From positions 452 through 64,451 of the forward strand of contig DYFY01000005.1 in assembly GCA_020724955.1 (NCBI GenBank): DNA of 64,000 nt. Reading direction: 5' to 3'. Position 1 is the stretch's first letter. Every line of letters begins with the position of its first letter. Made by a program: the position numbers and the translations under genes. Source of the stretch: Candidatus Parvarchaeum sp. Its GTDB lineage: Archaea; Nanobdellota; Nanobdellia; Pacearchaeales; GW2011-AR1. Positions 13,827 through 16,384 of this stretch are shown one piece after another. Below the pieces are notes generated by a model, which saw nothing but the letters and a program-made list of their open reading frames with translations, was not told the DNA's origin and did no database searches.

Positions 13827-13930
13827 TTTCTGCTTATGTCGGCGCAATCGGCGCTTCGCGCCTCAGTTCATTGAGGCAAGTTTTTTTAAAAGTTAAAAGT
13901 TAAAAAAATAAATTTTTGTTGCAAACATAC

Positions 13931-14077
13931 TTATTTGCCACTCATCATCCCTAGAGCTCCAATTACAGCTAAAACGCCGCCAATTGCTGCTAGGTAAAAT
14001 TGGTTAGTCCAGAACTCACCGACTACTGCAAGAATACCTCCGATGAGTACAACCCACATTTGCCATCCGCCTTTCAT
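13931..14077 (-). CDS. 48-aa Gly-rich two-helix membrane protein
   Basis: MKGGWQMWVVLIGGILAVVGEFWTNQFYLAAIGGVLAVIGALGMMSGK*, preceded by the SD GGAGG. Below the ORF-track cutoff. Confidence 0.5.
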   Translation of the reverse strand: MKGGWQMWVVLIGGILAVVGEFWTNQFYLAAIGGVLAVIGALGMMSGK

Positions 14078-14209
14078 GTTAAAAACCTCCTTATAGTTGT
14101 TGGTAAATATCGTTTAATTAAGTGAGAGAGATTTAAATAAGTTTGCCTTTTTTCTGGTTAATTTACAGATTTTAGAGCAAATTTCTTAATTTTTTGAGAT
14201 TGGAGAGAT

Positions 14210-14328
14210 GTTTGGGGCTGTTTAAGGGGTGTTTGGGGCTGTTTTTACTTTTATCGACGATAAACAGCTGTTTGGGGCTGTTTAAACAGCTGTTTAAAAC
14301 TTTAGCTGGGGTGTTTGGGGCTGTTTAA
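14210..14328. promoter_or_regulatory. Array of four GTTTGGGGCTGTTT repeats interleaved with two perfect AAACAGCTGTTT palindromes
   Basis: Repeats start at 14210, 14231, 14270 and 14313. Palindromes lie at 14262..14273 and 14284..14295. The array sits upstream of the ORF at 14424. Confidence 0.7.
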
Positions 14329-14423
14329 AGGGTGTTTAAGCTGTGTTTTTTTGAAAAACGAAATCGTCGATTAAACGGCTTAAAAACATAAGATTTTTAA
14401 ATATTGGGTGTTTAAGAATTCGT

Positions 14424-15050
14424 ATGTTTTGGTTATTTGGAAAAAAAAGAGTTGAGAGGCTTGAAAGGGATATTGAAAAAAGTTTTTTAACTGTTAAAAA
14501 TGATTTTGAAAAAGTTGGAAAATGGATTAAACACCTGGATGGGCATAAAAGGGGGCTTTCGAAAAGCGTTGAAGAGATAAAGCTTGAATTAGCGACGATT
14601 CGTGAGGAGCTTGAAACTATCAAAGAAACAATTTCTTTAGTTAATTTTGCGGCTGAAGGCAAACAGCTGTCCAAAAAACAAACAGCTGTTGGTAAACAAA
14701 CAGCTGTTTATGCTGTTCAAGAACCTGTTCAAACAGCTGTTCAAACAGCTAATTTTTATGATTTTTTACAAGGTTTATCTGCTAATGAGAGGTTGATAGT
14801 TTTTACGCTTTTGAATGCTGATGAAGGCATGAAGTTAAGTTATGAGGATATAGCCAGGCTGTTGGGAAAAGAGAGATCTACTATCAGAGGTCAAATAAAC
14901 GCGATAAAACAGAAAAGTGAGGGTTTGTTATTTGAATTAACCGAACCCAATGGGAAAAAAAGAGTGTATATTCCAGAGGAAATCAAAGAAAAATTAACAA
15001 AATATGCAAAAGTGAGAGTTAAAGGAGCTGGAAAAAGAAATAAAAAATGA
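14424..15050 (+). CDS. Coiled-coil + C-terminal winged-helix DNA-binding protein
   Basis: N-terminal heptad-rich region. Q/T/A linker encoded by AAACAGCTG repeats. C-terminal HTH LSYEDIARLLGKERSTIRGQINAIKQK. Confidence 0.6.
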   Translation: MFWLFGKKRVERLERDIEKSFLTVKNDFEKVGKWIKHLDGHKRGLSKSVEEIKLELATIREELETIKETISLVNFAAEGKQLSKKQTAVGKQTAVYAVQEPVQTAVQTANFYDFLQGLSANERLIVFTLLNADEGMKLSYEDIARLLGKERSTIRGQINAIKQKSEGLLFELTEPNGKKRVYIPEEIKEKLTKYAKVRVKGAGKRNKK

Positions 15051-15370
15051 AGATTTTCATAAATTTTGCAAAAGTGAGAACTTTTTGGAACCAAAAACTC
15101 GGAGGAAGTGAGGGAAAATTTAAAGAAATTGCTAAAGCTGGCGAAGTGAGAAATTTCAAAATTGGCAGTTTGTGGAAAAATGAGAGTTAAATGAGGAAAA
15201 ATTGCCTTTTGTGCGCAATTTTTCTGATGTGAAAAAAGAAAAAAGCGGTTTATTGAGCTAAATTTGGGCTTTTTAAGGCTTGAAAAGCTTGATTTTGGGC
15301 AAATTGGATTTTGTAGCTTCGCTTTTAATTCTATTCGGTATATCGAAAATAGTTAGTGTTTAGTGGGTTG

Positions 15371-16078
15371 TTAGATTGCCCGAAGTTGATAAATTGTTTC
15401 TAATGATGCTATTTTCCTGAGTTCAGGAGAGACTGAAAGTATAATCCTCTTGTTATTTTCTCTTTGTTTCTCAATAGGGATTCCTTTCTTTATGATCCTT
15501 AAGATATAATCGCGGATCGAGCTTTCTGTGAGCGAAAGTCTTTGAGAGAGGAGCGCATAATCGACGATAAATCCTTTTTCTTCTAAGTCATAAAGGGCGC
15601 TAAAAACCTGCATTTCCTGAACAGTTAATTTCTTAAACTTAAAGCGAACTTCTTTTTTTATCTCGTCCAGAGAGTTTAAAATTTCTGAAACTTTTTGAAA
15701 ATTGGTGATTTTATCTGTTTTTTCGTCTGTTTTTTGAACTTTTTCTGTGTGTTTCTGGTTGTTTAGAAATGGATTTCCATGAGAAATCAGGGGGTTGTTG
15801 TCTGTCTGTCTGTTGTGTTGTCTGTCTGTCGAAACCCCTCTATTTCCAGTGGAAATAGCTAAATTTGGGCTTTTTAAGGGTTCTAATTGATAATTCATTG
15901 TCGAAACTATTGTCTTATGTCTGTTGTCTGTCTGTTGTTGTGGGATTTGTGCTGAATTCTGTATATGAATATTGTTCTTTAGCTCTGAAATGGCACTTTT
16001 CAGGTCTAAAAGCTCTGAGCATATAAAATCTATATCCTGCCTTATCTTTTGAAATGCTTCTTTTAGCTTGTCCTGCAT
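15371..16078 (-). CDS. Coiled-coil + C-terminal winged-helix protein, paralog of 14424..15050
   Basis: Same architecture. C-terminal HTH DYALLSQRLSLTESSIRDYILRIIKKG. Linker encoded by CAGACAGACA tracts. Confidence 0.55.
   Translation of the reverse strand: MQDKLKEAFQKIRQDIDFICSELLDLKSAISELKNNIHIQNSAQIPQQQTDNRHKTIVSTMNYQLEPLKSPNLAISTGNRGVSTDRQHNRQTDNNPLISHGNPFLNNQKHTEKVQKTDEKTDKITNFQKVSEILNSLDEIKKEVRFKFKKLTVQEMQVFSALYDLEEKGFIVDYALLSQRLSLTESSIRDYILRIIKKGIPIEKQRENNKRIILSVSPELRKIASLETIYQLRAI
15842..15856. promoter_or_regulatory. ORB-core-like palindrome ATTTCCAGTGGAAAT inside the 15371..16078 ORF
   Basis: 15-bp dyad matching the TTCCAGTGGAAA core recalled from archaeal origin recognition boxes. 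Confidence 0.35.
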
Positions 16079-16102
16079 GATTTTTTTAATAAATGAAAGG
16101 AT

Positions 16103-16384
16103 TTAAGGATTGTTGTGCTGGTGCTTCTTATAGACCTCATAGGCTGTTTGAGATATACGCCAGCGCTGGCGCCTTGTGTATTGTTTGCCTTTGGAGGATT
16201 TTGTTAGTTTTGTGACTAACTTGTTTTTTTCTAATTCCTCTAACAATGATTTTGTAAACTCTTCATCCCGTATAATCTCTTCCGCTATTTTGCTAGTGAA
16301 AGCTGGCTGCGGAGAAATTATAAAAAGATAATGCAATATCTGCTCTGAAATCTTCCGGCGCTTTGAATTTGAAAGGCGTGGCAT
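16103..16384 (-). CDS. Small winged-helix protein
   Basis: 93 aa. wH-like FTSKIAEEIIRDEEFTKSLLEELEKNKLVTKL. Confidence 0.5.
   Translation of the reverse strand: MPRLSNSKRRKISEQILHYLFIISPQPAFTSKIAEEIIRDEEFTKSLLEELEKNKLVTKLTKSSKGKQYTRRQRWRISQTAYEVYKKHQHNNP

Follow-up and report, generated by a model that had tools for sequence, protein, structure and literature searches.

A repeat array straddles the start of a gene for a winged-helix protein, here called wHTH1, in a 64,000-nucleotide stretch of archaeal contig DYFY01000005.1 (the window; GC ~37%; DPANN, Pacearchaeota/Woesearchaeota type). The array occupies positions 14207-14750, beginning ~215 bp upstream of wHTH1 (14424..15050, plus strand) and reaching ~330 bp into its coding sequence. 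Its DNA motif is kept in about 150 related genomes, even where codon choice is thereby fixed, and selection acts on the coding DNA and not on the peptide alone. The sequence suggests that this stretch of the gene most probably doubles as protein code and as a docking platform for a protein, with wHTH1 itself as the most likely binder. We consider it reasonably probable that 14207-14750 is one cis-acting DNA array of protein-binding sites, most likely bound cooperatively by wHTH1 for autoregulation.

A heptamer array spans the wHTH1 promoter and enters the gene

The repeat unit is the heptamer G[CG]TGTTT, of which ten exact plus-strand copies lie within 14217-14413 and eight inverted copies (AAACA[CG]C) within 14262-14749, the whole array amounting to ~20 heptamers in ~550 bp. 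Longer repeats are built from this unit: the 12-bp palindrome AAACAGCTGTTT consists of two heptamers that are inverted and overlapping, and the 14-mer GTTTGGGGCTGTTT is a pair of heptamers placed 10-11 bp (one helical turn) apart. A preliminary description of this DNA had reported four copies of GTTTGGGGCTGTTT, at 14210, 14231, 14270 and 14313; these coordinates are exact, and the window contains no others. It had also placed AAACAGCTGTTT at 14262 and 14284, which is right for both, and a third copy was found at 14698 inside the gene.

The upstream block (14207..14347, plus strand) holds nine exact heptamers, starting at 14217, 14228, 14238, 14267, 14277, 14289, 14310, 14320 and 14331, with degenerate copies at either end and spacings of 10-12 or 21 bp. 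Embedded within it are the first palindrome (14262..14273), an inverted heptamer pair, and the second (14284..14295), which forms part of the composite G(G/C)TGTTTAAACAGCTGTTT that orthologues keep ~157 nt before the ATG.

The density of these repeats had been described as far beyond chance, and the counts bear this out. There are nine strand matches to AAACAGCTG in the window where 0.83 are expected, all of them in 14262-14739, and none of 100 dinucleotide-preserving shuffles reached this number. The CAGCTG hexamer alone is not enriched (18 in the window vs 12.8 expected), and a restriction-modification or genome-wide CAGCTG effect was rejected on this count. Nor is the motif a common one: the window contains no second heptamer cluster and no other heptamer pair within 30 nt, and in 480 kb of flanking DNA from orthologous loci (outside -400..stop) the palindrome occurs only 10 times, nine of these being no more than 1.4 kb upstream of the gene.

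The array is conserved and always linked to wHTH1

Orthologues were compared using a set of 73 species-level loci with a median amino-acid identity of 0.60 (per-site counts are given out of 74), and 80 species-level genomes were retrieved for synteny. In 73 species-level genomes the orthologous gene has kept the array both ahead of it and within it. Upstream regions carry 3-10 heptamers per locus, with a mean of 5.6 plus-strand copies in -300..-1, and ~6 further copies lie in codons 35-130, compared with a background of ~0.03 per 100 nt in the 4-kb orthologous flanks. Within the 73 loci, 191 copies of the 10-mer core were counted. The exact 12-bp palindrome is present in ~40/74 upstream regions, mostly as GGTGTTT-N3-GGTGTTTAAACAGCTGTTT with more heptamers ~14 nt further on.

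At least 120 metagenome contigs contain the exact 19-mer GGTGTTTAAACAGCTGTTT, and 80 of them were fetched and examined. Seventy of the 80 encode, on the same strand, an orthologue of wHTH1 (42-63% identity) that starts 100-285 nt downstream of the 19-mer (mode 157), and the array is present in all 70 of these interpretable contigs. The remainder comprises six contigs too short to judge and four lone matches in unrelated genomes without the array; the latter are chance matches, a few of which are expected for an exact 19-mer in so large a collection. A viral or plasmid source was rejected, since the 19-mer gave no match in viral contigs. The array is always linked to the wHTH1 gene, and in every fetched locus (the closest relatives) the recognition helix of the protein and the motif are both essentially invariant.

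The upstream heptamers follow the helical repeat of B-DNA

All-pair distances between upstream heptamers in the orthologues show peaks at 10-12, 21-22, 31-33, 42-43, 53 and 64 bp, corresponding to a period of ~10.6 bp that persists across six helical turns. A period of 10.6 bp is the signature of proteins aligned along one face of B-DNA.

The position of the array relative to the promoter is also conserved. In the window a TATA box, TTTAAATA (14396..14403, plus strand), stands 28 nt before the ATG; in 70/74 orthologues TTTAWAWA begins at -30 or -29 and is preceded by a conserved sequence, AAAACGCAA, resembling a transcription factor B recognition element (BRE). Judging from archaeal promoter geometry, a TATA box 29-30 nt before the ATG implies that the mRNA is leaderless or nearly so; the array, at roughly -215 to -75, then falls upstream of the promoter and outside the mRNA. 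One promoter-proximal heptamer, GGTGTTT at 14407..14413 (plus strand), follows the TATA box and precedes the start codon, and a half-site is found in this interval (within -24..+3) in 29/74 loci.

Coding copies of the motif are written in two reading frames

Seven positions within the coding sequence (sites A-G) are conserved, in two codon frames and as two peptides, K-Q-L/V-F and Q-T-A/P-V. Thus, one motif written in two reading frames generates two different conserved peptides.

Sites A-C use codon frame 1. Site A (14529..14535, minus strand) reads AAACACC in I-K-H-L and is present in 70/74 orthologues, which use the codons AAA (100%) and CAC (95%). Site B is absent from the window, where H-K-R-G-L-S is found instead, and reads AAACAGCTGTTT in D-K-Q-L-F in 68/74 orthologues. 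Site C (14661..14669, minus strand) reads AAACAGCTG in K-Q-L-S and is present in 67/74; its family consensus, AAACAG[CG]TGTTT, encodes (N-)K-Q-L/V-F. Sites D-G use codon frame 2. Site D (14680..14691) reads AAACAGCTGTTG in K-Q-T-A-V and appears in 52/74 orthologues as a CTGTTT half-site in K-K-x-x-V, while site E (14698..14709) is a perfect palindrome, AAACAGCTGTTT, in K-Q-T-A-V-Y and is present in 40/74. Site F (14731..14741, minus strand) reads AAACAGCTGTT in V-Q-T-A-V and is found in 63/74 (family V-Q-T-A/P-V, AAACA[GC]C), and site G (14743..14750, minus strand) reads AAACAGCT in V-Q-T-A-N (family V-Q-T-G/A-N), with AAACAG in 74/74 and its codons CAA and ACA both at 100%. The preliminary description had listed five copies of AAACAGCT(G) in the gene, at 14661, 14680, 14698, 14731 and 14743, and had read them as a Q-T-A-V linker. 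The positions stand, and the open reading frame (ORF) at 14424-15050 does encode ...KKQTAVGKQTAVYAVQEPVQTAVQTA..., but the copy at 14661 reads K-Q-L-S in another frame and not Q-T-A-V.

Codon choice at these sites departs strongly from background. The Gln codon is CAG in 100% of cases at the K-Q sites (background 60% CAA, 40% CAG), whereas at the Q-T sites it is CAA in 99-100% of cases at F and G and in 73% at E. QTAV is spelt CAAACAGCTGTT in 66/82 cases vs 5.6% expected, and its Ala codon is GCT in 82/82 (background 0.40). Elsewhere in the orthologous wHTH1 genes codon use is at background. Codon homozygosity has a median of 0.97 in 23 motif columns, compared with 0.59 in 94 other conserved columns (Mann-Whitney p = 3e-7). 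Together with the use of two frames, these figures settle a point raised in the preliminary description, namely whether orthologues keep the DNA beyond what the peptide demands: they do.

The motif also dictates which residues are free to vary. The degenerate codon of site C is GTG in 36 sequences and CTG in 32, giving V or L, and the variable codon of site F is GCT in 42, CCT in 26 and GGT in 5, giving A, P or G; these variable residues track the degenerate base of the motif. Sites C-G coincide with a linker (residues 79-107) of near-invariant sequence that AlphaFold2 predicts to be disordered (predicted local distance difference test score, pLDDT, <50), and it is the embedded DNA motif that accounts for the near-invariance. 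Codons of the winged-helix domain show ordinary synonymous variation, indicating that wHTH1 is a real protein-coding gene. Selection on the DNA sites largely fixes the peptide too, so that KQLF, KQTAV and VQTxVQT are mostly by-products.

wHTH1 is the most likely protein to bind the array

The wHTH1 product (208 aa) consists of the N-terminal sequence MFxWLFGKK, a helix (residues 4-77), the disordered linker and a winged helix (residues 105-199). Its AlphaFold2 model shows one long helix, the low-scoring linker and a C-terminal winged helix with pLDDT 80-90. Sequence-based searches were uninformative: Pfam matches were all below cut-off (the best being HTH_29 at 21.8 bits and HTH_38 at 21.2 bits), NCBIfam gave no match above threshold, and a PDB sequence profile search returned coiled-coil noise only. 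Using Foldseek, the C-terminal domain matched MarR/MepR, Lrs14-type AbfR2, SlyA and ArsR/CadC (probability 1.0, E 4e-4 to 5e-3). Because MarR/MepR, AbfR2 and ArsR are winged-helix DNA binders, wHTH1 is a plausible DNA binder as well. The family comprises >2,800 homologues at E <= 1e-3, and the recognition-helix region is nearly invariant among the orthologues. The case for wHTH1 as the likeliest binder is that this region is as near-invariant as the motif and that array and gene are never found apart; the neighbouring winged-helix proteins wHTH2 and wHTH3 are possibly additional binders.

According to the model that we favour, one winged-helix domain would engage each heptamer. The upstream copies, which their ~10.6-bp spacing places on one face of the helix, could then support a cooperative filament, and the long N-terminal coiled coil might allow bound proteins to bridge the upstream and intragenic blocks. 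Such a bridge would enclose the TATA box and the start site, whereby wHTH1 would curb its own synthesis by looping, occlusion or a roadblock. Both looping and autorepression are steps that we infer.

Several observations weigh against autoregulation by wHTH1. The conserved gene block encodes three winged-helix proteins, and any of these or another factor might bind. The ~20 sites far exceed the need of a simple autoregulator, which favours a structural, centromere-like role. Phased T-tracts bend DNA intrinsically, and part of the signal could be architectural. The halves of the palindrome are only ~6 bp apart, which is unusual for a MarR-type dimer. Finally, coding site B (D-K-Q-L-F) is family-wide and has been lost in the window, so that individual sites must be dispensable.

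wHTH1 belongs to a conserved gene block

The convergent neighbour of wHTH1 is wHTH2 (15371..16078, minus strand), which has the same layout of coiled coil, linker and winged helix and is syntenic in 79/80 loci; a BLASTP comparison of wHTH1 with wHTH2 was not significant. The block also includes a small winged-helix gene, wHTH3 (16103..16384, minus strand), and a gene for an Lhr helicase, and the order wHTH1(+), wHTH2(-), wHTH3(-), Lhr(+) is syntenic in essentially all 80 genomes retrieved. Genes for cdc6 and PolD lie downstream, at a distance of 7.3 kb in the window and 6.5 kb in an 885-kb contig. No ParA-type, SegA, ParM or SMC gene was found in the conserved block, in locus L081 or among the scanned ORFs of the window. 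Nothing relevant came to light in the literature searched, whether on the motif string or on winged-helix/coiled-coil proteins of DPANN.

The linker of wHTH2 has a character of its own. Low-complexity TGTC / TTGTCTG repeats at 15799-15941 (minus strand) encode a Q-T-D-N/R-rich stretch, and in orthologues the repeats are of the (CAGACA)n or (CCAACAAAC)n type, making this linker lineage-variable, unlike that of wHTH1.

Further motifs are written through the locus

A near-palindromic box of consensus TTATCGWCGAT occurs at the left array edge (14251..14261, TTATCGACGAT), inverted at the right array edge (14363..14373, ATCGTCGATTA) and again within the coding sequence (14589..14599, TTAGCGACGAT), where most orthologues have TTATCGTCGAT, read L-S-S-I. 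In its upstream position, -200..-160, a YCGWCGR box is present in 39/74 loci vs a background of 0.08 per 330 nt. The coding box is present in 59/74, and its two Ser residues use the rare codon TCG in 88-89% of cases vs 8.6% in the background. The TTATCG(A/T)CGAT box is probably the site of a second protein.

A second repeat, AAAAGTGAG[AG]G / AAAGTGAG, is confined to the plus strand and extends from the last third of wHTH1 to ~300 nt past its stop codon (loci L001-L080). In the window the AAGTGAG array (14915..15150, plus strand) has copies at 14915 and 15010 within the coding sequence, in K-S-E and A-K-V-R, and at 15072, 15106 and 15144 past the stop. Orthologues carry ~4 copies of AAAGTGAG per locus vs a near-zero background, with spacings near multiples of 10. 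This array fixes the codons of K-S-E and A-K-V-R-V (GCA AAA GTG AGA GTT, ~100% conserved).

The coding sequence of wHTH2 contains an element, TCCACTGGAAATAGAGGGG (15835..15853, minus strand), resembling an origin recognition box (ORB). The window has no other full match, and the element is read I-S-T-G-N-R-G. The pattern, TTTCCA-NN-GGAAAT-NNN-GGGGTT, is present in 57/73 loci, and its synonymous sites are near-invariant (TCC 99%, GGA 100%, GGG 97%, GTT 100%). The element resembles the Pyrococcus ORB core ATTTCCACTGGAA with its G-string (PMC1904270). A mini-ORB-like dyad at 14972 in wHTH1 was rejected as window-specific and not conserved.

Since the heptamers, the box, the AAAGTGAG array and the ORB-like element all run through coding sequence, motifs of this kind are a general property of the gene block. 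We tentatively raise the possibility, without regarding it as the likelier one, that the ~2-kb wHTH1/wHTH2 region beside the replication origin of Pacearchaeota/Woesearchaeota-type DPANN serves first and foremost as a DNA structure, a platform that is centromere-like or organises the origin and consists of at least four protein-binding motifs (phased heptamers, TCGNCGA box, AAAGTGAG array and ORB-like element). If true, these motifs would be written through the genes of the very proteins that assemble there, and large parts of those proteins, including the invariant 'disordered linker', would be by-products of a DNA code. The locus would then represent a previously undescribed archaeal system of chromosome organisation with extreme dual coding.

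Additional structured elements were noted around wHTH1. Downstream of the gene, a conserved hairpin at 15191-15227 (plus strand) has the form ATGAGG-AAAAATTGCC...GCAATTTTT-CTGA, with C-box-like RUGAGG and D-box CUGA flanks. Its stem shows compensatory changes between species (e.g. L004, L012, L045 and L071), and it has no Rfam match; the hairpin looks like a structured RNA of the kink-turn (k-turn) type. Several orthologues (L002, L003, L007, L012, L013, L016, L018, L025 and L039) share a conserved GC-rich element, ...GCGCGTTCGGCGCTTCGCGCCTCAC..., which includes the hairpin GGCGC-TTC-GCGCC and precedes the array, ~230-270 nt before wHTH1 starts. None was found in the window stretch 13900-15100; ARAGORN does not call the element a tRNA, and Rfam gave no match to it.

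A probable replication origin lies next to cdc6

The region upstream of cdc6 (window 21760-22355, the gene beginning at 22356) is the probable chromosomal replication origin. It contains a very AT-rich stretch (~21940-22030), three to four 30-bp tandem repeats of TAATTGAGAGTAATTAAGGGATTTTTAAAG (22030-22185), and the ORB-like sequences GGAGTGGAAACGATGGTGTGGG at ~22220 and GGAAATAGAGG at ~22283. At the same place in L081, inverted ORB-like elements are arranged around an AT-rich core. Between the Lhr block and this origin lies a gene for a small PRC-barrel protein (window 21497-21757, minus strand; L081 15945-16753), syntenic in at least two genomes; in L081 it is adjoined by a gene for an FHA-domain protein.

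Alternative functions of the array

In the alternative that survives best, the array serves as a platform that is centromere-like or organises the chromosome: wHTH1, possibly with wHTH2 and wHTH3, would build a nucleoprotein complex (segrosome-like or membrane-tethering) near the origin, with the array as its loading site. We judge this possible, at roughly a one-in-several level of belief; it overlaps with autoregulation by wHTH1 and does not exclude it, but autoregulation would become a mere side effect. The number of sites (~20 phased copies in 550 bp, in a single cluster per locus), the breadth and strength of conservation of wHTH1 within the lineage (>2,800 homologues), and the position of the block 6.5-7.5 kb from cdc6 and its adjacent ORB/AT-rich origin, both in the window and in the 885-kb contig, keep such a role alive. 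The ORB-like element embedded in the neighbouring wHTH2 gene fits as well, as does the conserved hydrophobic-basic N-terminus MFxWLFGKK followed by a long coiled coil, although a membrane-targeting role of this N-terminus is a guess. A precedent is provided by the sites of archaeal SegB, which cluster near segAB and are mostly intragenic (PMC12284271). Set against this, neither the conserved block nor the scanned ORFs of the window include a ParA, SegA, ParM or SMC gene, and proximity to the origin is seen in just two genomes with long enough flanks, plus L027.

It is unlikely that the array is itself a replication element, in which iteron-like repeats would form a second origin and the winged-helix protein would be a WhiP/Rep-like initiator. 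Direct repeats together with an inverted repeat beside a winged-helix gene do recall Rep/iteron logic, wHTH2 contains an ORB-like Orc1 site at a distance of 1.1 kb, and gene orientation is divergent at 14.1-14.4 kb. However, a canonical origin is present directly upstream of cdc6, where inverted ORB-like elements flank an AT-rich stretch in L081 and the window has ORB-like elements and an AT-rich stretch; as the chromosomal origin, the array was rejected in favour of that region. In addition, the heptamer is unlike the ORB, its unit measures 7 bp and recurs every turn, not 17-22 bp recurring every two turns, the array has no marked AT-rich unwinding stretch beside it, the cumulative GC skew has no turning point at 14 kb, and neither a Rep_3 domain nor a Cdt1-like double winged helix was found in wHTH1.

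A constraint at the level of RNA is, if anything, slightly less probable still. Here the self-complementary copies would fold the mRNA, or an upstream transcript of GGUGUUU repeats would pair with AAACASC in the mRNA. The plus orientation predominates among upstream copies and the inverted one among coding copies, making the two blocks mutually complementary, and synonymous constraint by itself cannot tell DNA from RNA. Yet RNAalifold applied to 27 orthologous coding segments gave only -5.2 kcal/mol with a covariation term of -0.3, and there is no Rfam match: at the gathering threshold nothing was found in the window or in six loci, and within positions 14000-16200 there were only chance-level matches at E up to 1. 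Neither the window nor nine loci that were scanned contained a tRNA. The TATA box at -30/-29 leaves the array outside the mRNA, and TATA boxes further upstream suit the divergent gene. Moreover, a 10.6-bp period maintained over six turns is a property of B-DNA, and common variants such as AAACAGGTGTTT lose self-complementarity yet retain the heptamer.

Finally, that the motif has no function, its coding copies being the preferred codons of a conserved or slippage-made peptide repeat and its upstream copies chance or a decaying duplicate of the 5' half of the gene, is scarcely credible: no codon is commoner than CAA, ACA, GCT and GTT for their respective amino acids, the stretch 14660-14750 shows tandem repeats with 18-nt and 12-nt periods, and the upstream and coding regions share two motifs in a similar arrangement, but the joint frequency of the four codons is 80% vs 5.6% expected, the Gln codon flips between the two reading frames, the remainder of the gene is at background codon use, and species in which synonymous sites are saturated elsewhere still retain both the intergenic motifs and their phasing.

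Relation to known DNA-binding systems

The preliminary description had compared the array with parS sites inside parB and with iteron or operator arrays. Its likeness to the logic of phased repeat operators and centromeres holds up, but the array belongs neither to the ParB/parS family nor to the Rep/iteron family. The parS consensus is a 16-bp palindrome of the TGTTNCACGTGAAACA type; parS sites lie inside parB/spo0J, and ParB spreads from them, nucleating a higher-order complex. Both systems have a palindromic site within the gene of the binder (here the presumed binder) and close to the origin. They differ in that parS is one site whereas the array has ~20 short ones, and in that ParB has a CTPase domain and an adjacent parA. 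The motif G[CG]TGTTT / AAACAGCTGTTT is not the parS palindrome, wHTH1 is without a ParBc (CTPase) domain (Pfam gave only sub-threshold generic HTH matches, and the model consists of coiled coil, linker and winged helix), and no ParA-type ATPase gene adjoins wHTH1, either in the block of wHTH1, wHTH2, wHTH3 and Lhr or in L081 or the scanned window ORFs.

With respect to Rep/iteron systems, wHTH1 has a single C-terminal winged helix and no Rep_3 match, and the unit is 7 bp repeated at ~10.6 bp. The context of the array is chromosomal and syntenic, and an AT-rich region with ORB-like elements is found at cdc6 instead. In the archaeal oriC (ORB / Orc1-Cdc6) class, an AT-rich stretch beside the initiator gene is flanked by ORB or mini-ORB repeats, which have a TTCCA..GGAAA core and may carry a G-string. 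The array is not a member of this class either, as it contains no ORB; the heptamer is unrelated to the ORB.

By analogy, the array may work like phased direct-repeat centromeres and operators of the parC-ParR type and like pho boxes. In R1 parC/ParR, in pSK41 and in the pho boxes of PhoB/OmpR proteins, the binders sit head-to-tail along one DNA face, on short direct repeats that recur once per helical turn. Phased repeats of 10-11 bp in plasmid parC flank the promoter of the binder's operon, the centromere being at the same time the operator. Short direct repeats at one-turn spacing are likewise found around the wHTH1 promoter, whereas wHTH1 has a winged helix and not the ribbon-helix-helix of ParR, and stands alone, with no gene for an actin-like or ParA motor. 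These bacterial or plasmid-borne repeats also differ in that they are not known to extend into coding sequence, and PhoB is a response regulator.

Autoregulators of the MarR/Lrs14 (AbfR2) group share the C-terminal fold with wHTH1, and their operators lie at the regulator's own promoter, as the heptamers, as putative operators, do here. In sequence, wHTH1 is not assigned to this group by Pfam or NCBIfam. A 75-residue N-terminal coiled coil and the disordered linker replace the MarR dimerisation helices, and the number of sites and their coding location fall far outside the usual MarR pattern.

Archaeal precedents exist for functional sites within genes. In Thermococcales ORB and mini-ORB elements that cluster inside dp1, the gene for the small subunit of PolD, were shown experimentally to be bound by Cdc6/Orc1 (PMC1904270). 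As at the wHTH1 locus, these are coding-sequence sites near the origin for a DNA binder that contains a winged helix, with an organisation kept between species (PMC1904270), and their direct counterpart here is the ORB-like element inside wHTH2. The dp1 sites lie in a gene other than that of their binder, whereas the heptamers lie in the gene of the presumed binder, in two frames, and form a continuation of the phased array upstream. SegB, a site-specific archaeal DNA binder, has sites that concentrate near its own locus and are predominantly intragenic, and it brings about short-range compaction and long-range looping (PMC12284271; PMC8682754). The array shares with SegAB the intragenic placement of its putative sites near the locus of the presumed binder. 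SegB pairs with the ParA-type ATPase SegA, whereas no SegA-like gene was seen in the neighbourhood of wHTH1. SegAB also belongs to a different lineage, the Sulfolobales and others.

Implications for the biology of DPANN archaea

Arrays of cis-acting sites that overlap the gene of a DNA-binding protein are of a kind already known; the extent of dual coding at wHTH1 is unusual. The locus provides a strong natural case in which a 12-bp motif is written in two frames, holds synonymous sites invariant and dictates the permitted amino-acid variation. We are aware of no experimental work on how these uncultivated archaea regulate their genes or organise their chromosomes. The array offers a lead in a poorly known group, pairing a very widespread uncharacterised winged-helix protein with a precise putative DNA target near the origin. 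It also carries a warning, in that conserved peptides of this sort in these genomes should not be taken as evidence of constraint at the level of the protein.

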